From assembly GCA_016192685.1 (NCBI GenBank), contig JACPTS010000001.1, positions 394,628-458,627 on the forward strand: 64,000 bases of DNA, given 5' to 3'. A program made the position numbers and the translations under genes. Origin of the DNA: Candidatus Harrisonbacteria bacterium (GTDB lineage Bacteria > Patescibacteriota > Minisyncoccia > UBA6257 > 02-FULL-45-10c). Under the pieces are notes generated by a model that was given only the letters and a program-made list of their open reading frames with translations, made no database searches and had not been told where the DNA came from. Position 1 is the first letter of the stretch, and each line of letters opens with the position of its first letter. Positions 3,518 through 58,859 of the stretch are shown here, piece by piece.

Positions 3518-3663
3518 ATTACTTACGTGTTTTGTATACAGAAATTAGCCGTTTTTTAGAGGGGTGGTTTTTATTTATTCTGGATAATTAATTTTATTTT
3601 TTACGGAGGTCTTAGTCTCTAGGAAAATTTATTTGCTAAAAAATAATTTTTCCAATTTTTAAA

Positions 3664-6600: not shown

Positions 6601-6846
6601 GAGGTTTGGGCGTTGGAAGGTTATGGCGCGGCGCATACGCTTCAGGAAATGCTTACGATTAAATCGGACGATGTTCTGGGGCGTTCGGCTGCTTATGAAT
6701 CAATTATTCGCGGCGAGCCCATTCGGAGTCCGAATATTCCGGCATCATTTAATGTTTTAGTCAGTGAGTTAAAAGCGCTTGGCTTAAATGTGGAATTGCT
6801 TGGCGCCGATGGCCAAGTCGGGGAAAGAAAGCCAAGAAGAAAATAA
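3664..6846 (+). CDS. rpoB: DNA-directed RNA polymerase beta subunit
   Basis: 1060 aa with conserved beta-subunit blocks (GDKLAGRHGNKGVIS, NMQRQAVVS etc.). Confidence 0.97.
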   Translation: MPKLPAKVFSSHPGALMAQPNLVEIQTNSYNWFLNNGLKELFEEVSPIKDYTGKDLELHFKDFYFDEPKYDEEYSRYKDLTYESALRVKFQLINRRTKDKKEQEVYLGDFPVMTSRGTFIINGVERVVVSQLIRSSGVYFTANVWKGRKLFGAKIIPNRGVWIEFETDADGLIGVKIDRKRKAPATAMLRIFGLEDNAEIADTFSDVDTGEIKYLQTTLKKDSAKSADDSYIEIYKRIRPGDLATPENAKSLIDAMLTRFDRYDLSQVGRFKVNQRLGLNSQNRMLELQDIIAILKEVIRLNNNQSVEPDDIDHLGNRRVRPVGELLQNKLRVGLARMRRIVQDRMSTLDINTLSSVQLVNSRPIVSVVKEFFSSSQLSQFMDQVNPLAELEHKRRISAMGPGGLTRERAGFEVRDVHSSHYGRICPIETPEGSNIGLVNHLAGYARVNELGFLETPYVAVEKGKITSKIVWLNALEEEKYKIAHAGVPFNPETKEIIPEVVGARINGEPGTCLKSEVDFIDVAPNQLISIATALIPFLEHDDANRALMGSNMQRQAVVSIMAEAPYVGTGMEEKAARDSGHLLLAEAAGEITAVDANRIILKTKSGAKKYVLNKFKRSNQYTCISQRPLISRGQKVKKGEALADGPSMENGVLALGQNLVVAFVPWEGANFEDAIVLSERAVQRDKFTSIHIEDFYIDVRDTKLGPELTTPDIPNVSEEKLKNLDEEGIIRIGAEVRSGDILVGKISPKGESELTAEERLLRAIFGEKARDVKDTSLSMPHGKFGHVVGIKIFDRERGDKLEPGIIKRVQVEVAQLRKVMAGDKLAGRHGNKGVISQVRPIEDMPYLEDGTPVDIVLNPLGVASRMNLGQVLETHLGWAAAKLGYRAYTPALSGASWQQIQEELEKAGLPKSGKVKLHDGRTGKPFHQEVTVGVIYMMKLNHLVEDKIHMRSIGPYSLITQQPLGGKAQFGGQRFGEMEVWALEGYGAAHTLQEMLTIKSDDVLGRSAAYESIIRGEPIRSPNIPASFNVLVSELKALGLNVELLGADGQVGERKPRRK

Positions 6847-6848
6847 AA

Positions 6849-9800
6849 ATGGATAATTTAAAAGCCTTAAAACTAAAAATTGCTTCTCCGGACGACATTT
6901 TAACTTGGTCGCATGGGGAAATTATTAAGCCGGAAACAATTAATTACCGCACTCAACGGCCGGAAAAAGACGGCCTTTTCTCGGAGAGAATTTTCGGCCC
7001 GACCAAGGACTGGGAATGTTATTGCGGAAAATACCGGCGTATCCGTTATAAGGGTATTGTTTGTGACCGCTGCGGAGTGGAGGTTACCCGTTCTATCGTG
7101 CGGCGCGAGCGGATGGGGCATATAAAGCTCGCGACGCCGGTTTCTCATATCTGGTTTTTACGCAGCGCGCCTTCCAAATTAAGCTTGGTTTTGGATGTGC
7201 CGGTGCCTAAGCTGGAAAAAGTTGTTTATTATATTTCTTATATTATTACCGCCGTTAATGAGGATAATCGGGAACGGGTTCTTAAGGAATTGGAAAAAGA
7301 ATTTGATTCCCGGAAAAAGACTGCCCGTAAGGAAGGGGTGAAGACTGCCGATTTGCGTTCCGGCCTTTCGGAAAGCAAAAAGGAGGTGGAATATTTAAAA
7401 ACCGGAGCGATTTTAAGCCAGATGGAATTTCATCATTTAGCCAGAAAATACGGCGATGTTTTTGAAGCCGGCACCGGAGCCGAAGCCCTGCGGAAAATTT
7501 TGGAAGAAGTTAATTTAGAGAAATTAGTCAAACAAGTGGAAAAAGAACTGGAAACTAACAAAGACAATCTTCGGGAGCGCCGGCTTTTAAAGCGCCTTAA
7601 GCTGGCCAAATCCATGCTTAAAGAAAAAATGAGGCCCGAATGGATGATTTTGACTACTTTGCCGGTGTTGCCGCCGGATTTGCGCCCGATGGTGGCTTTG
7701 GATGGCGGCCGCTATGCCACTTCTGATTTAAACGATCTTTACCGCCGGGTTATCAATCGGAATAACCGGTTAAAGAAACTTTTGGAATTAAACGCTCCGG
7801 AAGTGATTATCACTAATGAAAAAAGGATGCTCCAAGAATCAGTGGATGCTTTATTTGATAACTCGGTTCGTTTTGGGACTCAGCAAATGTCCAGCCAGCG
7901 CCGCCCGCTTCAATCCTTATCAGACCAGCTAAAGGGAAAAACCGGCCGTTTCCGGCAAAATCTGCTTGGAAAACGGGTAGATTATTCCGGCCGCTCGGTA
8001 ATCGTTATTGGTCCGGATTTGAAAATCAATGAGTGCGGTTTGCCCAAAAAAATGGCTTTGGAACTTTTTAAGCCGTTTGTGATTAATAAAATTATTGAAC
8101 GGGGACTGGCCCATAATATCAGGAATTCCAACAGGCTGATTGAGCAGGCGCCGCCGGAAATTTGGGCAATTCTGGAAGAGGTGATTGCGGACCGCAAAGT
8201 GCTTTTAAACCGGGCGCCGACCCTGCATCGCCTTGGTGTTCAGGCTTTTAAGCCGGTTTTGATTGAAGATTTGGCGATTCGGATTCCGCCGATGGTCTGC
8301 ACGGCTTTTAACGCGGACTTTGACGGCGACCAAATGGCGGTGCATTTGCCGCTTTCGGCGGAAGCCCAGAAAGAAGCATCGGAAATTATGCTTTCCAGCC
8401 ACAATCTTTTAAAACCCGCCACCGGCGACCCGATTGTTTATCCAACCCAGGATATCATTCTCGGGATTTATTTCTTAACTAAAATTAATAAAAACGGCAA
8501 AGGGGCCGGTTTGAATTTTGCCAGTCCGGAAGAAGCCAATGTAGCTTATGAAAACGGCATAATTGACGTTAACTCGCCAATCCAGACGGTTTGGAATGGC
8601 GGAAAGCTGGAAACTTCTTATGGCCGGATTCTTTTCAACAGCGTTTTGCCGGAAGGGCTCGGCTTCATTAATAAAATGTTCCGCAAGAAAGATGTTACTG
8701 TGCTGGTTGGAGAAATTATTCATCGATATGGCAATGAGGATTCCGGCAAGTATTTGGACGCGATGAAAAAGCTGGGATTTGAGTATGCCACCCGTTCCGG
8801 AATCACTTGGTCAATGAGCGATTTAACGACACCAAGCGAAAAGCCGGCGATGCTCGTCAAAGCCGAACAGGAAGTGGCGGCTATCCGCCAGCAGTATGAA
8901 GAAGGATTGCTTACGGATTCGGAGCGGCGAGCCAGAGTTTTAAGCGTCTGGGAAAAAGTAAAAGAAGCCGTCAGTAAATTAGTTCCTCAATCTTTGTCGG
9001 AACATAACCCGATTTATTCCATCATTGATTCGGGGGCGCGGGGAACCTGGTCTCAGCCGGTGCAGATGATTGGCATGAAAGGTTTGGTGGCTAATCCTAA
9101 AAACGAAACTATTGAATTGCCGATTAAATCTTCGTATAAAGAAGGGCTTTCGGTGCTGGAATTTTTCATTAATACCCATAGCGCCAGAAAAGGAACCACC
9201 GATACCGCTTTAAAAACCGCTTCAGCCGGCTACTTAACCCGGCGCTTAGTTGATGTCTCGCAAGATTTAGTCATTAGAGAAGAAGACTGCAAAACTAAAG
9301 AAGGGATTGAGATTGCCAGGGCGGAACGGGAGCAGTTCGGATTAGATTTCGGCGACCAATTATTTTCCAGAACGGCATTGGAAGATATTAAGATTGACGG
9401 GAAGACCCTGATTAAATCCGGAGAGGTTATTGACAGAGAAACCGCCAATCTTTTTAAAGCTTCCAAGGTTGAGATGGTAAAAGTGCGTTCCCCGATTGTC
9501 TGCCGAACTCTATATGGCGTTTGCTCCAAGTGTTATGGTTTTGATCTCGGTAATAATCAGCTGATTAAGCCCGGATCGGCAGTGGGCATTGTGGCCGCCC
9601 AATCTATCGGAGAGCCGGGAACACAGCTGACCATGAGAACTTTTCATACCGGCGGCGTGGCCGGAACCGATATTACCCACGGTTTGCCGCGGGTAGAAGA
9701 GATTTTTGAATGCCGGCCGCCGAAAGGGCGCGCGTTTTTGGCGGAAGATGACGGAGTGATTGACGGCATTGAAGAAAAAGGACTTTTAAAAAATATTCGG

Positions 9801-49310: not shown

Positions 49311-51932
49311 TTACTTACGGTATAGCCACTTACCCAATTCAATCGCCGCAATGTTAGAGAATCCCACTCCGGCTACTCCTAATAGCCAAAGCGGCGGCAG
49401 AGGGACGGTTTTTAACAGCATTTGCATTGGCGGAAAATAAATTGAAGCCAGCATCAAGATTAAGCCCGCTCCCACGCCGCTAAGAAGATAAAGATTGGAA
49501 AAGGGATTATATTGAAAAATGCTTTTTTGCAGGCTGCGGACGGAAAAAATCAAAAATAAAGAGTAGGTTCCAAAAGCGGCAAAGATAAAAGTTCTTACAA
49601 TTAACGGGTTAAAGCCTAATTTTAACAGCGTAAAATAGAGCGCGAATAATAAAACGCTGGTGGGAATGCCGATGGCGGCAATTAAAAATTTCATTTCCGG
49701 GTCAATTAGTTTTTTGGGCGATCGTTTTGGTATTTGGAGCAGATGGTCAATGTGGTCTTCAAAAGCCAGGGTAATGGCCGGAAAACTGTCAGTTAAAAAA
49801 TTTACCCAAAGAATTTGGATGGCATTTAGGGGCAGGGCAATGCCGACTAGAAGTGACCCTCCAATCAGTATTAGTTCGTCCAGGACTGAAGAAAGGAGAT
49901 AAACAATTACTTTTCGGATATTTTCCATTGTCCGCCGGCCCTCTTCAATGGCGGCGACAATGGTGTGATAGTTATCGTCCAAAAGCACCAGTTCGGCAAC
50001 GTCCTTGGCGACATCGGTTCCCGAACCCATGGCCACGCCAATATCAGCTTGCTTGAGGCTGGGAGCGTCATTTACCCCATCGCCGGTCATAGCCACTATT
50101 TCCCCGATATCTTGGAAAGCCTTAACGATTTTTAATTTTCCTTCCGGACTGACTCTGGAAACAACGCGCAGTTGCGGCAAGCGGGATTTCAGCTCTTCGG
50201 CATCCATCGCGTCTAATTCCGAACCGTTAATAATATGTTCCGGTTTGGTTGGCAATCCTAATTCTTTTGCCACTGCTTCCGCGGTGCCGCGATGGTCGCC
50301 GGTTACAATTACCGTTTTAATTCCCACTTCTCCTATCCGATGAATAGTATCCCGGACGCCTTTTCGGATTGGGTCAGTAAAAGAAAGAGTTGCCAAGAAT
50401 TGGAAGTCTTCAAATTTATATTTAGCGGTAAGAGCGATTGGCTGATGGCTGTTTATTTCCCGTACGGCGATTCCCAGGACCCGTTCGCCGCTATTCGCCA
50501 TTTTATCTATTTCTTTTAAAATCTGCCGGCGGTTTTCTTCCGGAGTTTGGGTGGAAATTTTAATGAGAATTTCCGGAGCGCCGAAAAGGCAGATATAATT
50601 TTTTCCCTGGTAATCAATGAGGGAAGCGGAAAATTTACTGGCGGAATTAAATGGCCGGTAATTCAATACCGGAATTTCTTTTTTAATTTGATGCGGTAAA
50701 ATGCCGATTTTTACTGCCGCTTTTACCACGGCTGCTTCCAGCGGCCGGCCGACAATCCGCCACTTATCTCTCGGCTCTTTTGGATTTTCAATGACGACAT
50801 CGGAATTGGTGATGGCCAATTTCAGTACTAATTCATCATCGGCCCAGTCATCAAATATTAAAAGGCGGGAAAGATTCATTTTTGCTTCGGTTAAGGTGCC
50901 GGTTTTGTCGGTTAAAATTACCGTGGTGTTTCCCAGAGTTTCGGCCGCGAGCAATTTTCGGATAATGCCGTTCTTTTTTGCCAGGCGCTGGACGCCGATT
51001 GCCAAAATAACCGTCATCGCGATCGGCAGGCCTTCCGGGATGGCAGATACCAAAATGGCCACCGAAGTTAAAAACATTTCCAGCGGCGAGTAACCGACCA
51101 GAACACCGGTAATAAAAATAACCGCTGTTAGGATTAAAAGAATGATGCTGGCTTTAACGCTGAAACTGGTAATGGCTTTTTGAAGCGGGGTTTGTTCCCG
51201 GGTTTGTTCTTTTACCAAGGAGGCGATGCGGCCGATTTCCGTGTTTTCATCAGTGCGGCAGACAACCGCGTTGCCGAATCCCTGCACCACCAGCGTGCCG
51301 CTGAAGATCAGGGATTTTTGGTCTCCAATGGAAGCTTGAAAACTGACTGCTTCAGTCCCTTTATTAACCGGCAGAGCTTCGCCGGTTAAAATTGCTTCGT
51401 CCACCATTAAATCATTGATATAAATCAGCCGGCAGTCGGCTGGCACGCGGTCTCCTTGGGAAACCCGGATAATATCTCCGGGAACCAATTCCTTGGCGTC
51501 AATTTCAATTTCGCGGCTGTCCCGAATCACCCTAACCCGTTCTTCAATGTAACTTTGGAGGTGGGCGAGCGCTTCCTCGGCTTTATTTTCCTGATAAAAT
51601 CCCAATAGGCTGTTAATGATGGCCGCGGCCAGAATAGCAATGGCATCCCGATAATCCTTTAAAAGGACAGTGATAGAACCGGCGATTAATAAAAGGAAAA
51701 TCAGCGGATTTTTGAATTGATTTAAAAGGATTTTTATTCTGGTGGTCTTTTTTTGCCCGTTGATTTCATTTTTACCGAAAATTTTCAATCTTTTTTTGGC
51801 TTCTTCATCGGATAGTCCTTCTTGGGTGGATTCCAATAAATCCAAAACCTCGCCGGTTTTGAGCGCCCAGAAAGATTTATGAACAATGTCTCTGATAATC
51901 ATCTCTTTATTATAACCTTCGCCGCTTGTCAT
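49311..51932 (-). CDS. P-type cation-transporting ATPase (Ca2+/Mg2+-type, P2 family)
   Basis: DKTGTLT phosphorylation motif, TGDHRGTAEAVA, GDGVNDAPSL and 10 TM helices. Start set at MTSGEGYN. The ORF-track extension upstream is a translation of the inverted repeat. Confidence 0.85.
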   Translation of the reverse strand: MTSGEGYNKEMIIRDIVHKSFWALKTGEVLDLLESTQEGLSDEEAKKRLKIFGKNEINGQKKTTRIKILLNQFKNPLIFLLLIAGSITVLLKDYRDAIAILAAAIINSLLGFYQENKAEEALAHLQSYIEERVRVIRDSREIEIDAKELVPGDIIRVSQGDRVPADCRLIYINDLMVDEAILTGEALPVNKGTEAVSFQASIGDQKSLIFSGTLVVQGFGNAVVCRTDENTEIGRIASLVKEQTREQTPLQKAITSFSVKASIILLILTAVIFITGVLVGYSPLEMFLTSVAILVSAIPEGLPIAMTVILAIGVQRLAKKNGIIRKLLAAETLGNTTVILTDKTGTLTEAKMNLSRLLIFDDWADDELVLKLAITNSDVVIENPKEPRDKWRIVGRPLEAAVVKAAVKIGILPHQIKKEIPVLNYRPFNSASKFSASLIDYQGKNYICLFGAPEILIKISTQTPEENRRQILKEIDKMANSGERVLGIAVREINSHQPIALTAKYKFEDFQFLATLSFTDPIRKGVRDTIHRIGEVGIKTVIVTGDHRGTAEAVAKELGLPTKPEHIINGSELDAMDAEELKSRLPQLRVVSRVSPEGKLKIVKAFQDIGEIVAMTGDGVNDAPSLKQADIGVAMGSGTDVAKDVAELVLLDDNYHTIVAAIEEGRRTMENIRKVIVYLLSSVLDELILIGGSLLVGIALPLNAIQILWVNFLTDSFPAITLAFEDHIDHLLQIPKRSPKKLIDPEMKFLIAAIGIPTSVLLFALYFTLLKLGFNPLIVRTFIFAAFGTYSLFLIFSVRSLQKSIFQYNPFSNLYLLSGVGAGLILMLASIYFPPMQMLLKTVPLPPLWLLGVAGVGFSNIAAIELGKWLYRK

Positions 51933-51946
51933 TGTATAACTTTTAA

Positions 51947-52094
51947 TTGCAAAAATAAAATACTCCAACAAGCGGAGTATTTTATTTTTGCGGTGTCTGT
52001 TTGAAAATATCCGAACGGAACTCTCTGGGCTCGGCGGGCGGAATTCCCCCCACACCCCCCTTCCGCCCGCCTCGCTTTGAACCGGAGCGGAAAG
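51947..52094. repeat. left copy of a 149-bp terminal inverted repeat (contains a bidirectional terminator hairpin and a GC-rich palindrome)
   Basis: Reverse complement of 53701-53847 matches with one mismatch. Includes AAAATACTCCaacaagcGGAGTATTTT and GGCGGGCGGAAttccccccacaccccccTTCCGCCCGCC. Confidence 0.85.
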
Positions 52095-52127
52095 GACGAT
52101 TTCAAGTTTTTCTTTGGCGGCAAATTC

Positions 52128-52667
52128 CTAATCAATTTTATCCTTAAAAAACTCCAATGTCGATTTTACAGTGCTACCATCGGATTTGGTTAAAACCGAT
52201 TCCACTTTTCTAAAAACTTCAGCCGGAGGTTGATCTTTTTTATCAATTCTTATTTCTCCGGTTTCGCCAAAAATTAAATGAACTTTTTGTCCATCGCTCT
52301 GTTTATCGCCAATCAGTAAGTGTTGTTCATTGCCTTGCGTTCTTGATTCAACCCAAAGTTTTTCATCTTCGAGACGGTTTATAATTTTTTTCTCGGTTAT
52401 ATATTGCTCAAAGAAATCTATGTATGGTTTTATCCAACTTTCACCGCCCATTGGGAAACCGCTAGTGTCGGACCATAAAGTTCTCGGCTTGCTGGGAAGT
52501 TTAAATTTCCGATAGCGTAGAGATAACAAGCCATCGCCTTTTAGGTTCTGGTCTAAAAATTTCTCAACTTGGTCTTTAGTTTCAGTAAGCTCCGTAGATA
52601 AGAGTAAATTCTCGGCGATGGCTTGAGATTTCGATTTTATCAATTTTATGATTTCTTCTTCGTTCAT
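52128..52667 (-). CDS. hypothetical protein (cargo of the IR-flanked cassette)
   Basis: 179-aa ORF, no recognisable domain. Confidence 0.5.
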   Translation of the reverse strand: MNEEEIIKLIKSKSQAIAENLLLSTELTETKDQVEKFLDQNLKGDGLLSLRYRKFKLPSKPRTLWSDTSGFPMGGESWIKPYIDFFEQYITEKKIINRLEDEKLWVESRTQGNEQHLLIGDKQSDGQKVHLIFGETGEIRIDKKDQPPAEVFRKVESVLTKSDGSTVKSTLEFFKDKID

Positions 52668-52674
52668 ATTATCT

Positions 52675-53349
52675 TTATTCCAAATCGCTTTTCCCGATAT
52701 TGCACTTTGAGCAAAGCGTTTGTAAATTTTCTAAAACTGTTTCTCCGCCATTTGCCCACGCCTTGATATGGTCAACATGAAGAATGATAGTCGGGTCTGT
52801 CGCGGGCGATCTCCCGCAATTTTTACATTTGAAATTATCACGCCTCATAACAATAAATCGCAACCTCCAATTTATCGTCCGTGGTGTTTTGTGTTGAGCA
52901 GGAAATTCAGCCCTCTCAATTTTCTTGATTGATTCTTCAGAAGTAGCACCTTCTTCGCTATTTACATATTCAACAAAACGCTCTAACGCTTTACGCCAGC
53001 CACCAAAACGATTTTCATAAGTCCCAACATGAAATTTTGAAAGCGGCTTCTGCACTTCTTGATAGCGAGGTTGTCGTCCAAGTTTTATCCATACTTCCTC
53101 TAAATTCTTAAACAATTCTTCTTCCGGAACATTCGGAGAAGTTCTTGTTTTTTGCAGCCCCGCTTTTTTTAATGCGTCAAACCAGCTTCCAAACCGTCGA
53201 AGTTGGGTTGTGCTGTGATATTTCCCGTTAGTATCATATTCTTCTCGCGTAACGGAATCCTTGTTGAGTTTTTTGGCAACAACTTTTAAATCCTCTATAA
53301 GAGATTCATCAGATACATTTCGGTTGTAATCGTCTAGTTCAAATTTCAT
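52675..53349 (-). CDS. HNH endonuclease with an N-terminal domain carrying a duplicated FG.W..AL motif
   Basis: C-terminal HNH motif CKNCGRS...HVDHIKAWANGGETVLENLQTLCSKCN. Internal repeats RFGSWFDALKKAG and RFGGWRKALERF. Confidence 0.75.
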   Translation of the reverse strand: MKFELDDYNRNVSDESLIEDLKVVAKKLNKDSVTREEYDTNGKYHSTTQLRRFGSWFDALKKAGLQKTRTSPNVPEEELFKNLEEVWIKLGRQPRYQEVQKPLSKFHVGTYENRFGGWRKALERFVEYVNSEEGATSEESIKKIERAEFPAQHKTPRTINWRLRFIVMRRDNFKCKNCGRSPATDPTIILHVDHIKAWANGGETVLENLQTLCSKCNIGKSDLE

Positions 53350-53353
53350 AAAA

Positions 53354-53560
53354 TTATCTTAGTAAATCTTCCATAGAAACGCCGAGGGCTTTAGCGATTT
53401 TGGCAATCATCTGAACGCCCGGCTTCGTTACAAAATCGCCCTCAATCTTGGCGAGAGTGGAGTATTTTATACCCGTCTTTTTAGCAAGGTCATCCTGCGT
53501 TATTCCTTGCTTTGCCCTTATTCTCTTTATGTTTTCTCCTATTGTTGCCATAGTATCCAA
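53354..53560 (-). CDS. XRE-family helix-turn-helix transcriptional regulator
   Basis: 68 aa: IKRIRAKQGITQDDLAKKTGIKYSTLAKIE is a canonical Cro/C1 HTH. Confidence 0.8.
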   Translation of the reverse strand: MDTMATIGENIKRIRAKQGITQDDLAKKTGIKYSTLAKIEGDFVTKPGVQMIAKIAKALGVSMEDLLR

Positions 53561-53700
53561 ATTTTGATAGTATAAAAATATGTTATACTTTTACTTGTAT
53601 GATTATCATATCTAATTTTTTGATTTTGTTCAAGAAAAGCCCGCTTTTGGCCTTCATAAAGTTCGAGTCGACATTTTTGACAGGCTCTTTGGCAGTTTGC

Positions 53701-53847
53701 CTTTCCGCTCCGGTTCAAGGCGAGGCGGGCGGAAGGGGGGTGTGGGGGGAATTCCGCCCGCCGAGCCCAGAGAGTTCCGTTCGGATATTTTCAAACAGAC
53801 ACCGCAAAAATAAAATACTCCGCTTGTTGGAGTATTTTATTTTTGCG
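53701..53847. repeat. right copy of the 149-bp terminal inverted repeat. Its outer end coincides with the 3' end of tRNA-Ser(TGA)
   Basis: See the left copy. The outer terminus ...TTTTGC sits directly against the discriminator position of the minus-strand tRNA-Ser. Confidence 0.85.
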
Positions 53848-53932
53848 GAAGCGGGAGGATTCGAACCTCCGATGCCCTTTCGGACATAACAGTTTTCAAG
53901 ACTGTCCGTTTAAACCACTCACGCACGCTTCC
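53846..53932 (-). tRNA. tRNA-Ser (anticodon TGA)
   Basis: Reverse complement: acceptor GGAAGCG/CGCTTCC, anticodon arm ACAGT-CTTGAAA-ACTGT, long variable arm, T-arm GGAGGTTCGAATCCTCC. Confidence 0.75.
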
Positions 53933-53940
53933 TTGCCGAG

Positions 53941-54011
53941 TGGACCTACGGGGAATCGAACCCCGGCCTCCTCCATGCCATGGAGGCGTAATGCCATTTT
54001 ACTATAGGCCC
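53941..54011 (-). tRNA. tRNA-Ala (anticodon GGC)
   Basis: Reverse complement: acceptor GGGCCTA/TAGGTCC with a G3:U70 alanine identity pair, anticodon arm CCTCC-ATGGCAT-GGAGG, T-arm CCGGGGTTCGATTCCCCGG. Confidence 0.65.
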
Positions 54012-54071
54012 GTCAGTATTTTATTTTAAATAAAATCTGGTAAAATTGGAAGCAGACCTTATTTTTAACAA

Positions 54072-54959
54072 TTGAAAATGAAACGATTAGTTTTATCGGC
54101 AGGTATTTTGTTATTTCCTTGGCAGGAGCTTTTTGCGGAACAAGTAAGAGTTACCATAAATAAAAAAACAGTTTATCAATCAGAAGTTTTAAAAATCCAG
54201 CTGATTCAAAAAAGCACTGCCCCGTTTTCAGTTAATTTTCTAGGGAGAAAACACGAATCTTTTTTAATGGGGCGGCGCCAAACAGTTTTACTCGGAATTG
54301 ATTATCAATTAAAGCTAGGCACTTACAGCATTACCGGAGTTTTAAAAGAAGCTGATAATTTTTATTTCCCGATTTATTATAAAATTACAGTCAGGGAAAA
54401 ATTCCCGAAATTGAAATATGTTCCTCCTAAGCGGTCGGAAAAAGAGCAGGCGCGGATTAATAAAGAAACGGAAGAGAAAAGAGCCGTTCTGGAACGGATA
54501 GATTACCAGCCGGATTCAATGGGGCATTTTGCGCGGCCAGTCCATCCGGCTGTTGTTAATGCCAATTTTGGAGAAAAGCGATGCCGTGACCGTACTTTGT
54601 GGAGGCGATTTAATTGCCGTTATCATCTGGGGATTGATTATCGGGCGGCTTTTGATTTTTTCCATCAGCGGCCGGAACCGATCCGGGCAATCAATAATGG
54701 CAGAGTTGTTTTGACCGAGAGCCGCATTGTTGACGGCAAGACGGTTGTTATTGACCATGGGTATGGAATTTCTTCCGAATATCTGCACCTTTCAAAATTT
54801 TCAGTAAAAATTGGCGAAATTGTTAAGCGTGGGCAAATTATCGGCATTGCCGGCAAGACTGGGGCAACCGAAGCGATTCATTTGCACCTCACGATTAAAA
54901 TGGATAATGGAAAAACTATAGTTGACCCGGAAAGTTTTTTCCAGGCAGTCAGTAAATAA
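54072..54959 (+). CDS. M23-family metallopeptidase (peptidoglycan endopeptidase-like)
   Basis: HxxxD (IDHGYGISSEY) and HxH (AIHLHLTI) zinc motifs. N-terminal signal/TM. Confidence 0.75.
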   Translation: MKMKRLVLSAGILLFPWQELFAEQVRVTINKKTVYQSEVLKIQLIQKSTAPFSVNFLGRKHESFLMGRRQTVLLGIDYQLKLGTYSITGVLKEADNFYFPIYYKITVREKFPKLKYVPPKRSEKEQARINKETEEKRAVLERIDYQPDSMGHFARPVHPAVVNANFGEKRCRDRTLWRRFNCRYHLGIDYRAAFDFFHQRPEPIRAINNGRVVLTESRIVDGKTVVIDHGYGISSEYLHLSKFSVKIGEIVKRGQIIGIAGKTGATEAIHLHLTIKMDNGKTIVDPESFFQAVSK

Positions 54960-55058
54960 TTATTCAAATTGCTCCTTCTCGGGGCATTTTTATTGCCATT
55001 TAGTTTTAAATGGAGTAGAGTTTGGGATAGGAAATTGTCAACTGTATAGGATAAGGGG

Positions 55059-55628
55059 ATGAAGAAAGTTTTTGCTTGGCTGTGGGATAATTTTAAGTTA
55101 GGCGTAACTCCGTTGATTCTTCTGATTATTATATGGATCGCTATTGCCTGGTTATCGCCCTTGGTGTTGCGTTGGGGATCGCTGCTGTTAAAATTTCACA
55201 TTGTTAATCTGGTTGCGGTGGACGTTTCATTGAATTTGCTTATTCTTTCCTTAGCCATTATGATTTTCGGCTACCTTAGAAAACTGGAATGGTTCCAAAA
55301 ATTTATTTGTATTTTTTTAAAAGTACCGATTGTTGGGCTGCCCATTTATAAGGTTTTATCGGTTAAGCCGTTTATTTTAGTAGAAGTAAGAACTGTTTGG
55401 GGGCCGACTCCAGAAGAAAGTTGTTGGGAGTATGCTATTTTGTTGGGAGAGGAGGAAGAGGAGTTGCCGGATAGAAAATTAATTTGGTATCGCGCGCATA
55501 CCTTGGGAATGGGTTCAGGAAAATTATTTTCCCGAGTCGGACGATTGAATATCCGTTTTTTGTCCAAGAAAGAACAAAAACGCGCTTGGCTGTTAGTAAT
55601 GACAATGGGATTTTATGATTCTAATTGA
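55059..55628 (+). CDS. hypothetical membrane protein
   Basis: 189-aa ORF with 2-3 TM helices, followed by a terminator. Confidence 0.45.
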   Translation: MKKVFAWLWDNFKLGVTPLILLIIIWIAIAWLSPLVLRWGSLLLKFHIVNLVAVDVSLNLLILSLAIMIFGYLRKLEWFQKFICIFLKVPIVGLPIYKVLSVKPFILVEVRTVWGPTPEESCWEYAILLGEEEEELPDRKLIWYRAHTLGMGSGKLFSRVGRLNIRFLSKKEQKRAWLLVMTMGFYDSN

Positions 55629-55633
55629 CGATA

Positions 55634-55663
55634 AAAAGTCCGCTAGTTGAAGCGGACTTTTTC
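55634..55663 (+). terminator. rho-independent terminator
   Basis: AAAAAGTCCGCtagttgaaGCGGACTTTTT. Confidence 0.75.
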
Positions 55664-55667
55664 TTGT

Positions 55668-55738
55668 CTCCTCAGAGGGAATTGAACCCCCATCTTTCCC
55701 TTAGGACGGGATTGCTCTATCCGTTGAGCTATGAGGAG
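55668..55738 (-). tRNA. tRNA-Arg (anticodon CCT), somewhat atypical anticodon loop
   Basis: Reverse complement: acceptor CTCCTCA/TGAGGAG, D-arm GCTCAACGGATAGAGC, anticodon region ATCCC-GTCCTAA-GGGAA, T-arm GGGGGTTCAATTCCCTC. Confidence 0.55.
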
Positions 55739-56169
55739 TATTTTTATAATTTAACCCAAGATAAAGTTATTCACAATTGGCAGTTTTACATTCCCCACCC
55801 TAAATTTGCTATACTAATGATTAGCGTGTTTATAAAAGGGTTGTTTATCTTTTGTGCGTTGTTTTTGAATTTTATTGTGAGGATAAAATTTTATTAATAA
55901 TAAATTTAAGATAAAACTGATTAGTTGAGTAACCCAATTGATTTTTTAGAAAAAATCAGGTGGCAGGCGAATTTCATTAAATTTTATTTTTTTGTTTCCC
56001 TCGCACGAGAATTTTTTCGTGAAAAATCAATTGGCAGTGCATTGGCTGGTTAGTTTGGAAAATATTGCGGCTATTCCGAATTCGGAGCTGAAATATTTGC
56101 CAACCCTTTTATAAGCGTGATAATATTTTAGTTCAAAGGTCGCGATTCTTACTTCAAATTTTAAAAAAT

Positions 56170-56418
56170 ATGGCGAATAGCGCATTTATGAAACCATTGA
56201 AGGTTAGTTCGGATTTAGCGGCGGTGGTCGGCAACGGGCCGATGCCTCGCAGTGAAGTCGTCAAAAAGCTTTGGGTGTATATTAAAAAGAACGGCCTTCA
56301 GGACTCCAAAAATAGGCGGAATATCAATGCTGACGCGAATTTAAAGAAAGTTTTTGGCGGAAAGTCGGTTGTTAATATGTTTGAGATGACCAAGTTAGTT
56401 TCTAAACACCTTTCTTAG
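56170..56418 (+). CDS. SWIB/MDM2 domain protein
   Basis: 82-aa ORF. MKPLKVSSDLAAVVGNGPMPRSEVVKKLWVYIKKNGLQD...MFEMTKLVSKHL matches the SWIB domain pattern. Confidence 0.7.
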   Translation: MANSAFMKPLKVSSDLAAVVGNGPMPRSEVVKKLWVYIKKNGLQDSKNRRNINADANLKKVFGGKSVVNMFEMTKLVSKHLS

Positions 56419-56524
56419 AAATTGATTTTTAATGGGGAACCGTTATATACTCAATTTATTAAGAGAAAGGTCGTAATGAATAGTTGAAAGTTATTAAAGT
56501 TCATAAAGTTTATAAACTAAAACT

Positions 56525-56683
56525 ATGGAAGGTTATTGCGTAAAGTGTAAAGAAAAAAGAGAAATGGACAATGCCAAGGAAGTTACCATGAAAGGCAAGG
56601 GCGGTAAGACCAGAATGGCCATGACCGGTACTTGTCCGAAGTGCGGCACTAAGATGTTCCGCATTATGGGGAATAAGAAGTAA
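56525..56683 (+). CDS. small zinc-ribbon protein (52 aa; below the ORF-track length cutoff)
   Basis: MEGYCVKCKEKREMDNAKEVTMKGKGGKTRMAMTGTCPKCGTKMFRIMGNKK. Two CxxC pairs. Followed by a strong terminator. Confidence 0.5.
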   Translation: MEGYCVKCKEKREMDNAKEVTMKGKGGKTRMAMTGTCPKCGTKMFRIMGNKK

Positions 56684-56713
56684 GACTTATAGATCTATAA
56701 ATCTTAAAAAACA

Positions 56714-56748
56714 AAAAATCCGCCTGCTAGCTATAGGGCGGATTTTTT
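56714..56748 (+). terminator. rho-independent terminator
   Basis: AAAAATCCGCCCtgctagctataGGGCGGATTTTTT. Confidence 0.75.
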
Positions 56749-56765
56749 GTTATCTTAATAAAGTT

Positions 56766-56852
56766 GGAAGGTTCGCATAGTGGTCTATTGCGCCGCATTC
56801 GAAATGCGGTTGGGGAGAAATCCCCTCGGAGGTTCGAATCCTCCACCTTCCG
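56766..56852 (+). tRNA. tRNA-Ser (anticodon CGA)
   Basis: Acceptor GGAAGGT/ACCTTCC, anticodon arm CCGCA-TTCGAAA-TGCGG, long variable arm, T-arm GGAGGTTCGAATCCTCC. Confidence 0.75.
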
Positions 56853-56854
56853 CA

Positions 56855-57225
56855 AATTTAAAAATCTCCAATTGGAGATTTTTAAATTTTCTGGAGGATT
56901 CGAACGGGAAGGGGTCGGGAAACGGGAGTTTCCCGTGTAGGAAGGCAGCCCGCTACGCTATAGCGTAGCGGGCGTCGGAAAACCGAGGGTTTCCGAGCTT
57001 CGTAACTCCTCCACCTTCCGCAAAGTTATTTTACCCGCCTTCGCAGAAAGCCCCGAGCTTTAGCCCGGGGATGAATGCGAACAAGGGTAATCCGCCGTAG
57101 CTTTAGCGAAGGAGGATACGCTTCGGTGGGTTTCGCCGAAGTATAATGGAGAAGCCACGGCTTTTAAGCCGTGGAGCTTCACTTGTCTTAAGCTCAAATT
57201 TTAAATATACTGGTTATGGTTTCTT
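56855..57225. other. GC-rich palindrome-dense element carrying an 18-nt direct duplicate and an inverted copy of the tRNA-Ser(CGA) 3' end
   Basis: TGGAGGATTCGAAC (inverted T-arm) at 56881. The perfect palindrome GCCCGCTACGCTATAGCGTAGCGGGC. TCCTCCACCTTCCGCAAA repeated at 56997-57014. Further hairpins continue to the guaB SD. Confidence 0.5.
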
Positions 57226-57241
57226 GAAAAGGAGAAAGAGA

Positions 57242-58693
57242 ATGAATTTGGAAGCAGCGGTAAGGCGATATTTTAAGACAAAGGGTTTGCCGTTGCAGCC
57301 GGCGCTTACTTTTGCCGATGTGGCGATTAAGGATAATTTTTCCGCCATTGATAGCCGGTCAGATATTAAGAATTTGAAAATCCGGCTGGCGGGGGAGATT
57401 TGTTTGAATATGCCGATTGTTTCGGCGAATATGGATACCGTGACTGATTCCAGGATGGCTATTGCTTTAGCGCGCCTGGGCGGTCTGGGTTTTATCCATC
57501 AATTTTTTTCTTTGGAAGAAAGAATTAAAGAGGTGGCGAAGGTAAAGCGGGCGGATAACGCTTTAATTGAGGATCCGGTAACTATTTTGAATACCGCCAC
57601 TCTTGGTGAAGCGAAAGAGCGCATGGCCGAATATAAAATTTCCAGTATTTTAGTGGTGGATGAGTTTAGTCGGCTTTGGGGAATTTTGACTTCCAGAGAT
57701 TATCGGTTTCAGTATGACGATGGGCTTTTGATAGAAAAAATTATGAGTTGGATGCCGCTGGTTATTGCCGCGCCGAATATTACCAGAGACGAGGCGTTAA
57801 AGATTATGGATAAAGAAAGGATTGAAAAATTGCCGCTGATTGACAATCGCGGCTTGCTGAAAGGATTGATCACCTCTAAAGATATTTTGAAGGAAAAAGA
57901 ATTTTTGCAAGCGGTGCGCGATCGGCGGGGGAAATTGATGGTTGGCGCGGCAGTTCAGCTTAACGCGGATTATCTTGCTGAGGCCGAACAGCTTTTAAAA
58001 GCCGGAACCGACGTGATTCTTTTGGATGTCGCCCGGGCTAATGCAAAAAGAGTAAAAGAAGCGGTTCAAAAAATTAAAAGCCGATTTCCTAAAGCGCCGC
58101 TGGTGGTTGGAAACATTGATACCCCGGAAGCGGCTTTGATGCTGATTCAGGCGGGCGCCGATTGTCTGAAGGTTGGAGTTGGCCCGGGTTCAGCTTGTAA
58201 AACCAGGGAAACAACCGGTGTTGGGTTGCCGCAATTGATGGCCGTGGTTTCCTGCGCGGCGGTTGCCAAAAAATACGGCGTTTCTCTTATTGCTGACGGC
58301 GGAATTCGCAGCGGAGCGAATCTGGCAAAAGCGTTTGTTGCCGGAGCGGACGCCGTTATGATCGGCAGCCTATTTGCCGGAACTGACGAGTCTCCCGGCG
58401 AGATATTTCAGGATGAAGGAAGGCGTTGGAAAATGTATCGCGGTTCAGCTTCTGCCGAACATCAGTTTGACCGAATGGAATCAGGGAGCCTTGATGGCAT
58501 GCGGACGCCGGAAGGAGTGCCAAGGCGCATTCCATACACCGGTCTTGTTAAATCGGTGGTGGAGGAATTGCTTGGCGGGCTTCGGTCTTCAATGAGTTAT
58601 GTTGGCGCTCATGATTTGAATGAATTTTGGAAATTGGGAAAGTTTGTCTGGCAAAGCCGCTCTGGTTATGAAGAGGGTAAGCCGCAAAGTTAA
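57242..58693 (+). CDS. guaB: inosine-5'-monophosphate dehydrogenase
   Basis: IMPDH catalytic loop GVGPGSACKTRETTGVGLPQ, a CBS pair and GGIRSGANLAKA. Start chosen at MNLEAAV after the SD AAAGGAGAAAG (the ORF track begins 96 nt earlier). Confidence 0.85.
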   Translation: MNLEAAVRRYFKTKGLPLQPALTFADVAIKDNFSAIDSRSDIKNLKIRLAGEICLNMPIVSANMDTVTDSRMAIALARLGGLGFIHQFFSLEERIKEVAKVKRADNALIEDPVTILNTATLGEAKERMAEYKISSILVVDEFSRLWGILTSRDYRFQYDDGLLIEKIMSWMPLVIAAPNITRDEALKIMDKERIEKLPLIDNRGLLKGLITSKDILKEKEFLQAVRDRRGKLMVGAAVQLNADYLAEAEQLLKAGTDVILLDVARANAKRVKEAVQKIKSRFPKAPLVVGNIDTPEAALMLIQAGADCLKVGVGPGSACKTRETTGVGLPQLMAVVSCAAVAKKYGVSLIADGGIRSGANLAKAFVAGADAVMIGSLFAGTDESPGEIFQDEGRRWKMYRGSASAEHQFDRMESGSLDGMRTPEGVPRRIPYTGLVKSVVEELLGGLRSSMSYVGAHDLNEFWKLGKFVWQSRSGYEEGKPQS

Positions 58694-58751
58694 ATTTAAA
58701 TCTGCCCTAGTGGCGGATTTTTTTATTTTCGTTTAGCATAAATATTATTCA

Positions 58752-58822
58752 GGGCCATTAGCTTAGTGGCAGAGCACCCGGTTTGCATCCGGGAGATGGG
58801 GGTCCGATTCCCCCATGGTCCA
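58752..58822 (+). tRNA. tRNA-Ala (anticodon TGC)
   Basis: Acceptor GGGCCAT/ATGGTCC with G3:U70, anticodon arm CCCGG-TTTGCAT-CCGGG, T-arm GGGGGTCCGATTCCCCC. Confidence 0.8.
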
Positions 58823-58859
58823 CAACTATTTATTACTTTGTTCTGTTATAAATTAATAT

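Follow-up and report, generated by a model that had tools for sequence, protein, structure and literature searches.

A stretch of 64,000 nt from a Candidatus Harrisonbacteria genome (contig JACPTS010000001.1; hereafter the 64-kb window, or simply the window) carries a small cassette of three genes between the 3' end of a tRNA-Ser(tga) gene and the gene for a P-type ATPase. The cassette is bounded by the two arms of a long inverted repeat, and the order, all on the minus strand, is tRNA-Ala, tRNA-Ser(tga), right arm, XRE, HNH, 179-aa protein, left arm and P-type ATPase (Table 1). A preliminary description of this DNA had taken the enclosed genes for an HNH nuclease, a Cro/C1-type regulator and a protein of no recognised family. 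Pfam and PADLOC agree with this, and the N-terminal duplication noticed in the HNH protein corresponds to two PF18780 'homing endonuclease associated repeats' in Pfam. The left copy of the repeat lies upstream of the ATPase as had been described, though not just upstream of it: the gap is ~46 nt when the start codon at 51902 is used.

Table 1. Features of the cassette and its flanks, in window coordinates
Feature	Position	Strand	Basis
tRNA-Ser(tga), integration target	53846..53932	-	Rfam; ARAGORN call begins at 53845
tRNA-side copy of hairpin H (GCAAAAATAAAATACTCC-loop-GGAGTATTTTATTTTTGC)	53804..53846	.	homologous single hairpin after tRNA-Ser in L136
XRE-side arm A, family-conserved 104-106 nt, GC hairpin 53724-53762	53700..53803	-	70-99% identity to 43 other loci
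Conserved XRE-side sub-terminal segment (ii-a 53681-53699, ii-b 53655-53678, U 53637-53652)	53637..53699	-	matches to recombinase regions in relatives
Predicted promoter/operator of the XRE operon	53549..53636	-	consensus scan and sequence
XRE/Cro-C1 regulator, 64 aa	53354..53548	-	Pfam HTH_3 3.8e-16; PADLOC 'Control_protein' 2.3e-8
HNH endonuclease, 224 aa, cargo	52675..53349	-	Pfam; PADLOC REase_II 8e-9
179-aa protein, cargo	52128..52667	-	no family match; ~90 homologs
Segment i' (AATTTGCCGCCAAAGAAAAACTTGAAATCGTC), between cargo end and arm	52095..52126	-	identical to recombinase codons ~29-40 elsewhere
Cargo-side arm A, inverted copy, GC hairpin 52033-52071	51992..52095	+	sequence comparison of arms
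ATPase-side copy of hairpin H	51949..51991	.	continues directly into ATPase leader, as in the empty site
Host P-type cation ATPase, flanking gene, outside the element	49311..51902	-	Pfam; orthologs 89% (L136), 71%, 61%

The inverted repeat spans 51949-52095 and 53700-53846, with 1604 nt between its arms. The arms are identical at 146 of 147 nt, and the sole mismatch is GCCTCGCTTTG on the cargo side versus GCCTCGCCTTG; the single-base difference reported earlier is therefore correct, and the reported length of 149 bp is not. Each arm consists of an outer AT-rich hairpin (H), a small hairpin and a GC-rich hairpin of 39 nt, in agreement with the outer terminator hairpin and the GC-rich hairpin described for both copies. 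Hairpin H has an 18-20 bp stem with a 7-nt loop and scores as an intrinsic terminator on both strands, and the GC-rich hairpin has an 11-bp stem and a 17-nt C6-N3-C6 loop. The Rfam and ARAGORN coordinates also place the end of the right arm flush with the discriminator base of tRNA-Ser, as had been stated. When one arm was used as the blastn query, the window contained two copies only (E=2e-72).

On the tRNA side, H together with the CC of the tRNA and the GG of the arm forms a perfect 20-bp stem. Because the stems form a perfect palindrome, the orientation of H can be read from the 7-nt loop alone. Read on one strand, the loops are AACAAGC at one end and GCTTGTT at the other, so the two copies of H are an inverted and not a direct duplication.

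Empty site and composition of the repeat

A metagenome scan with the window ATPase found L136, whose ATPase is 89% identical at the protein level. L136 is colinear with the window through the M23 gene, tRNA-Ala and tRNA-Ser(tga), and then from the ATPase leader onward, with 82-90% nucleotide identity on both sides. Between its tRNA-Ser and ATPase lie a single hairpin, homologous to H, and ~70 nt with a GGAGG ribosome-binding site, but no cassette. Because L136 has a single hairpin and no cassette, H is the native tRNA-Ser terminator and ~1.86 kb has been inserted, so a defined chromosomal site is occupied in the window and empty in L136. The preliminary description had proposed an insertion at the 3' side of tRNA-Ser and a look for empty sites in relatives; L136 provides one (tRNA-Ser, single hairpin, ATPase), and the cassette interior has a lower GC content (37.9%) than its flanks (42-44%), which also supports the insertion. 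At the ATPase relatives with 71% and 61% identity, ordinary housekeeping genes occupy the interval from tRNA-Ser to ATPase.

Compared with this empty site, the 147-nt repeat is a composite, in which the outer 43 nt are the host tRNA-Ser terminator and the inner 104 nt (arm A) are element sequence. The possibility raised earlier, that the repeat is merely a duplicated native terminator, thus holds for the outer 43 nt but not for the inner 104 nt, which are absent from L136 and conserved in a family of loci described below.

Identical cassette proteins occur in 9 Logan assemblies of one study. Logan contigs with the cassette or the flanking M23 gene all end at arm or hairpin boundaries; in L001-L008 (Logan, SRR121133xx-SRR121134xx), contigs of 1.66 kb correspond to the cassette interior and the flank contigs begin at the tRNA-Ser 3' end. 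Such identity within one study would suit an islet that is immobile here, namely a defence islet gained once by homologous recombination whose inverted repeat is a repair by-product with no role in movement, as would the host origin of the outer 43 nt of each arm and the lack of a recombinase. We consider this unlikely, since the inner 104 nt are not host sequence, are absent from the empty site and recur with the same boundaries in unrelated contexts with different cargo.

Arm-bearing relatives and their serine recombinase

A search for further copies of the repeat had been proposed, and we scanned one genome per species for the GC-hairpin core with the stems fixed and the loop free, which gave more than 120 loci. 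In addition to the two copies in the window, arm positions ~42-147 were matched by blastn in 43 of these loci at 70-99% identity, and the outer hairpin in none. Arms were thus present at 44 loci at least, mostly in metagenome-assembled genomes (MAGs) of Patescibacteria (candidate phyla radiation, CPR), and the hosts span many classes, including Saccharibacteria, Levyi-, Davies-, Wolfe-, Peregrini-, Harrison- and Magasanikii-bacteria and others. The outer boundary of the arm is ..GC/GGTGT.. in 33 of 35 aligned arms, with unrelated sequence beyond it. In the window, the XRE-side arm A has the same sharp outer edge, GC/GGTGT, and starts with the tRNA T-loop/acceptor-like GGTGTCTGTTTGAAAATATCCGAAC. 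Inward-facing arm pairs, 1.3-3.6 kb apart, were seen in 9 loci within the fetched blocks. A tRNA-Ser gene lay within 3.5 kb of the arm at 13 of the 44 arm loci, compared with 0 of 76 control loci that had the same pattern and no arm. The annotated phage and plasmid collections and IMG/VR gave no arm match, and the four pattern hits in IMG/VR were unrelated GC hairpins. The arms at L046:4303-4414 and L119:3057-3169 and 6784-6896 have a GC hairpin whose 17-nt loop (C-rich versus G-rich) runs opposite to the arm sequence on either side; the hairpin part of the L119 arm also points the other way from the XRE-side segment.

The gene for XRE is the only protein-coding gene common to the family cassettes. 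Its homologs (33-91% identity) occur in the cassettes of 25 or more loci, mostly ~200-250 nt inside one arm, and the genes that follow it differ at almost every locus. Many of these cargoes are type II restriction-modification (RM) pairs of an N6_N4 methylase with a CfrBI, TdeIII or ThaI nuclease; other defence cargo includes an EcoRI methylase with GmrSD-HNH and AAA_21, HEPN and Mrr, and some cargo is non-defence (all Pfam). A recurrent family with conserved inverted arms and mostly defence cargo bears out the earlier view of a mobile-type element with nuclease or defence genes. A homolog of the window HNH protein was found in one other cassette only (L059, 62%), so HNH is present in 2 cassettes. 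Similarity of XRE does not track that of the arms (L110, XRE 91% and arm 68%; L047, arm 99% and XRE 54%), which indicates that arms and cassette have been shuffled.

Shuffled sequence folds far less well than either arm (z = -7.3 and -6.8), which, with the 'homing endonuclease associated repeats' of the HNH protein, raises the question of a structured RNA, be it a small RNA, a riboswitch-like ATPase leader or an intron-like element tied to HNH. Several observations make this highly improbable. No Rfam family was found on the arms at the gathering or E<=5 thresholds, and only tRNAs and rRNA were matched. Hairpin 1 keeps a core of 4-5 bp only, and its changes are one-sided with no compensatory pairs (the GC stem was fixed by the search pattern). 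In addition, the arm stands on both strands relative to transcription, HNH is confined to the 2 cassettes, and the ATPase at the empty site has no arm.

Many loci have, beyond the XRE-side arm, a gene for a large serine recombinase (LSR) of ~500 aa with Resolvase, Recombinase and Zn_ribbon_recom domains, which were found in L013, L021, L047, L120, L123, L153, L155 and L157. The LSR open reading frame (ORF) passes through an 87-nt segment, R, and then antisense into the tRNA-Ser 3' end; a second copy of R, inverted, joins the XRE-side arm. The order in complete relatives is therefore tRNA-Ser, R', LSR, R, arm, XRE, variable cargo and arm'. LSR homologs form more than 120 clusters at >=60% identity, and many lie on contigs of 1.6-1.8 kb, the size of the R-bounded module.

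As an independent test, three LSR homologs (L153, L155 and L157) were picked solely for their long contigs. All three (3/3) showed the order recombinase (divergent), R, arm, XRE, cargo and arm', and tRNA-Ser abuts the recombinase end in L153 and L157, with none called in L155. The arm copies are 110 nt (99% identical) in L153, 108 nt (99%) in L157 and 101 nt (94%) in L155, and the corresponding R copies are 87 nt (99%), 87 nt (100%) and 68 nt (90%). The junctions in this set read tRNA..CTCC-GC-CAGTT, R..AACTG-GC-GGTGTG and arm'..CACACC-GC-host DNA.

In the window, the 3' end of tRNA-Ser (...CTTCC-GC) is the source of the CC-GC junction core. The ATPase-side junction, in the tRNA sense, is ..CAGACACC-GC-AAAAATAAAATACTCC..H..-AATTAAAAG-ATPase, the canonical form of complete elements in which arm, CC-GC and native downstream sequence follow one another. 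The tRNA side is tRNA..CTTCC-GC-(inverted H)-GC-GGTGTCTG(arm), with the 43-nt hairpin in place of R'-recombinase-R. The terminal sequences and CC-GC junctions of the window thus match those of LSR-bearing members, with arms 70-99% identical. The family LSR gave no tblastn match in the cassette or in the rest of the 64-kb window, and the cassette lacks an integrase as first described. Because relatives carry the LSR and the window has none, the window copy is classed as a recombinase-less derivative. L066 has a similar arrangement, with tRNA, a perfect AT-rich hairpin and GC/arm and no recombinase; two more cassettes beside tRNA-Ser, L112 and L044, likewise lack the recombinase, and L033 has the same tRNA-Ser/XRE adjacency. 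We therefore regard the cassette as probably belonging to a family of tRNA-Ser-targeting islets moved by an LSR, as a non-autonomous or fossil copy without the recombinase.

At the 11 loci where the recombinase module abuts an arm, it was the XRE-proximal arm in all 11, and likewise in the window and L066. This bears on the suggestion that the element is invertible, the arms being the sites at which a recombinase (Pin-like or large serine) would invert the XRE-cargo segment and so switch expression of cargo or ATPase. The arms are indeed long, near-identical and inverted, their identity of 99-100% within a locus versus 70-99% between loci suggests ongoing exchange between them, the neighbouring recombinase is named 'DNA invertase Pin-like' in some sources, and the loops in L046 and L119 are flipped. 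A GC junction dinucleotide would moreover be non-polar, so that inversion is chemically allowed. No alternative orientation was found, however, at these loci; the window has no recombinase; and each cassette is an operon with its own promoter, flanked by terminators, on which flipping would have no obvious regulatory effect. The apparent exception, L071, is a tandem/mosaic array, and the reading of its R copy beside the cargo-side arm as an inversion was rejected. We judge inversion of this kind improbable, and the earlier suggestion of an invertible element was not upheld.

The arms could also be terminal inverted repeats on which a DDE transposase from another locus acts in trans, as in a miniature inverted-repeat transposable element (MITE) or mobile insertion cassette. 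Such elements share with this one the terminal inverted repeats, passenger genes, lack of an internal transposase and many copies across genomes. There is, however, no direct target-site duplication at the window, where the duplicated 43-nt hairpin is inverted by its 7-nt loop, and only two arm copies occur in 64 kb. The partner gene in complete relatives encodes a serine recombinase, and no DDE-type gene was found in any mapped arm locus. Insertion is tied to tRNA-Ser 3' ends and is not dispersed, and the two ends carry different, side-specific sub-terminal sequences. This explanation is very unlikely, and the lack of direct target duplication and of a DDE transposase in relatives agrees with the preliminary view that the cassette is not a standard insertion sequence (IS).

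The sub-terminal sequences are related to the recombinase gene. The 32-nt segment i' has 100% matches inside the recombinase genes of L013, L021, L047, L120, L107, L030 and L153, and the segments inside the arms correspond to codons ~29-40 (i'), ~47-53 (ii-a) and ~445-454 (ii-b) and to the upstream region (U). Recombinase codons ~29-53 read AAAGAAAAACTTGAAATCGTC - GCCTCGCTAAGCGAGGC (a 17-nt palindrome) - AAAAACTGCCAAAGAACCTG (L013:1994-2063, also L021, L047, L120, L153 and L157); i' and ii-a thus flank the palindrome in the intact gene, and both halves recur just inside the arms. In four genes whose proteins are 75-91% identical, the third positions of codons 31-45 are 90-100% invariant, compared with ~40% elsewhere, and the constraint therefore acts on DNA; no other part of the gene has synonymous sites as invariant as the codons matched by i'. 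On a rather doubtful reading, the recurrence of the two halves inside the arms hints at cassette capture, or splitting of the recombinase gene, at that site, in an integron-like manner with a serine recombinase.

Variants of the module were also observed. In L123:3893-5452, a more divergent member (53% aa identity), the ORF of the recombinase continues directly into the arm (..NW/RCAFEKIRTDFAQNL, then stop), and the module is opposite in orientation to that of L013, L021, L047, L120, L153 and L157. ARAGORN reads the anticodon ACT in the tRNA-Ser that abuts the recombinase end at L013:3350-3437. This gene duplicates the neighbouring tRNA-Ser(tga) (3557-3645) at ~82% identity and may be an altered copy or one associated with the element. 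A distant recombinase homolog at L076:860-2361 (41%) adjoins tRNA-Pro instead of tRNA-Ser. It carries a perfect 93-nt inverted repeat of its own, and a GC hairpin like that of the arms is close by; other tRNAs may be targets of related recombinases. In P0119, a JGI protein cluster (559 aa, 7 contigs), the gene call joins the recombinase to an XRE helix-turn-helix; this is either an artefact across a short spacer or a real fusion.

Cargo and flanking genes

A domain and fold search of the 224-aa and 179-aa proteins had been suggested, and it succeeded for the former, an HNH nuclease, but not for the latter. The PDB sequence matches of the HNH protein are confined to the HNH core. The 179-aa protein had no match in Pfam, PHROGs, PADLOC or NCBIfam. 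Its AlphaFold2 model is confident (pLDDT 90), and Foldseek gave no significant PDB fold match for it. No homolog was found in other family cassettes; the gene after the HNH homolog in L059 was considered as a relative and rejected, as the two proteins are unrelated.

Elsewhere, ~90 unnamed homologs of the 179-aa protein adjoin other tRNA genes, without arms, XRE or HNH. Those at L145:7207-8540, L148:5549-7269 and L152:7417-8477 are directly downstream of tRNA Ser-cga, Ala-cgc and Glu-ttc, respectively, and stand behind differing unnamed partners (200 aa; 218 and 107 aa). The partner genes of the homologs in other genomes had no Pfam matches. From this gene order, CPR genomes seem to have a second kind of accessory module beside tRNA genes, one without arms.

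Upstream of XRE, a consensus scan detected a sigma70-like TTGAAC-17-TATGAT at 53633 to 53605, and this region also contains the palindromes ATGATAATCAT and GTATAA..TTATAC. The segment is thus a candidate promoter/operator. Because of its position, its PADLOC name 'Control_protein' and the palindromes in this promoter-like region, XRE is the presumed controller of the cargo operon.

The start of the ATPase is probably ATG 51902 and not ATG 51932 or that of a 914-aa GTG ORF, as L136 has GGAGG 13 nt upstream of its corresponding ATG; the window has GAAGG. Other RNA genes in the window are the 3' end of the 23S rRNA gene (1-244) and the 5S rRNA gene (327-445), both within positions 1-445, and five tRNA genes within 5 kb at 53845-58823 (Ser-tga, Ala-ggc, Arg-cct, Ser-cga and Ala-tgc). 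The second tRNA-Ser of the window (cga, 56766-56853) has no arm or cassette.

Proposed mechanism and comparison with known systems

The junction sequences suggest that the LSR acts as the integrase and that GC is the crossover point. CC-GC occurs at all three junction types, and the outer 25 nt of the arm resemble the tRNA T-loop/acceptor (GTTCGAAT..GCACACC-GCCA versus GGTTCGAATCCC..TCTCTCC-GCCA); because of both, a pair of attP and attB sites that cross at or beside GC fits the data. A complete element would then read, in the tRNA sense, tRNA-Ser..CC-GC, R', LSR (antisense), R ..-GC and arm A, followed by recombinase-derived segments with the promoter, XRE, cargo, i' and arm A' ..CC-GC before host DNA. 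The LSR presumably recombines the R-GC-A site with the tRNA-Ser 3' end, with the crossover in or next to the shared CC-GC. XRE would head the operon of exchangeable cargo and probably represses it in the manner of a C protein.

The window element probably entered an ancestor with the order tRNA-Ser, terminator H and ATPase. Its LSR module would have been lost and H copied across by repair or by gene conversion between the arms, which would lengthen the repeat from 104 to 147 nt. We infer this course as the most economical origin of the inverted H. Conservative GC crossovers alone (integration at either hairpin base, inversion, or excision and re-integration) were considered and rejected, as they give direct or single copies of H; the inverted copy therefore calls for replication, repair or a flip of the loop.

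Several points weigh against an LSR-moved islet family with the window cassette as its recombinase-less member. The inverted duplication of H is beyond conservative site-specific recombination alone. This copy may not be mobile, as the 64-kb window has no recombinase homolog, and the cassette could have arrived by homologous recombination from a relative. For recombinase-bearing members, the assembled contigs contained no excised circle, attP-only form or occupied/empty pair, so the integrase role of the LSR and the GC crossover are read from the junctions only. Typical serine-integrase sites are about 40-50 bp (PMC3783163), and sites of this size do not account for the conservation of ~104 nt with a GC hairpin, present twice and inverted. 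Some arm contigs were binned to non-CPR phyla, for which either binning errors or wider transfer may be the reason.

The orientation in which serine integrases recombine depends solely on the central dinucleotide (PMC3783163 and references therein). GC is self-reverse-complementary, and GC-centred sites would therefore be non-polar, which could underlie the many inverted duplications of the family. A bolder and rather doubtful proposal is that the family is a natural platform for recombinase-mediated cassette exchange, in which an LSR with a non-polar GC acts on inverted att-type arms around the XRE-led module. If so, defence cassettes could be exchanged or accumulate at tRNA-Ser, and could go in with either orientation.

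The LSR-associated islets are a widespread and apparently undescribed family of small serine-recombinase elements in CPR bacteria, and no description was found in the literature searched. The window copy itself appears to be a degenerate member, which tempers the interest of this locus. Few mobile elements have been characterised in CPR/Patescibacteria, whose genomes are tiny; the family seems to be a major recurrent carrier of RM and other defence genes there and would help explain the exchange of immunity genes. Its arms break short-read assemblies at these loci, and defence cargo in CPR MAGs is therefore systematically fragmented or lost. The recombinase has a compact, sequence-defined site pair (tRNA-Ser 3' end and R-GC-A), and LSRs are sought as tools for genome integration. 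The doubly inverted-repeat design, with R around the recombinase and A around the cargo, and the apparent GC crossover also raise the question of how serine integrases control polarity.

Among known systems, staphylococcal cassette chromosome (SCC)-type elements, such as SCCmec and the ccr-less pseudo-SCC, are moved by the large serine recombinases CcrAB/CcrC. Like SCC, the family forms site-specific islands with variable cargo at the 3' end of one conserved housekeeping gene via an LSR, with tandem/mosaic accretion and recombinase-less derivatives still bounded by the terminal repeats of the element. The family differs in its target (tRNA-Ser, not rlmH), its much smaller size (3-5.5 kb) and its CPR hosts, and in that cargo lies within ~105-nt inverted arms, the recombinase lies within its own 87-nt inverted repeat and XRE is the constant first gene.

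RM systems in mobile form, with long repeats on either side, have reportedly been described in work from the Kobayashi laboratory. The cassette likewise behaves as a movable unit between long repeats; however, the repeats here are a conserved sequence that is specific to the family and associated with a serine recombinase, and they do not duplicate target DNA. As in type II RM units with a C protein, a small helix-turn-helix gene (the 64-aa XRE) comes first in a nuclease operon, and relatives carry a methylase with a nuclease. In contrast to such units, the window cargo has no methyltransferase domain according to Pfam, whereas cassettes of relatives have methylases.

Mobile insertion cassettes (MICs) and MITEs, such as the IS231-derived MICs of Bacillus cereus, also have terminal inverted repeats around passenger genes and no recombinase inside. 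Unlike them, the family has no direct target duplications, no DDE parent, a tRNA-specific site and ~105-nt arms with asymmetric sub-terminal sequences. Serine-invertase switches (Hin/Gin/Pin) and the inverted repeats of the yeast 2-micron circle resemble the family in that a recombinase gene lies beside a segment bounded by inverted repeats, which are kept identical within the element. In the family, by contrast, no alternative orientations were seen, and the recombinase, a large one of the integrase type, is linked to a tRNA junction.

Tycheposons have a lineage-specific tyrosine integrase, replication hallmark genes and tRNA or partial-tRNA repeats; a minority of them rely on large serine recombinases, and their labelled sites include tRNA-Ser(tga) (bioRxiv 10.1101/2020.12.28.424599, Hackl et al.). 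Both target tRNA genes, have a terminal integrase and, through modular cargo that can be exchanged, build up islands in streamlined genomes. The window and the complete relatives have none of the features that define tycheposons, and tycheposons are without conserved inverted arms.

The family thus fails the defining features of tycheposons, IS/MITEs, invertons and integrons. The preliminary suggestion of a new type of element without a recombinase was right about the unusual architecture but not about the recombinase, as relatives carry the LSR, and the element is better seen as a variant of tRNA-targeting islets. The logic of an integrative islet is already familiar; the double inverted repeats, the pairing of tRNA-Ser with an LSR in CPR bacteria and the swappable defence module led by XRE are not.

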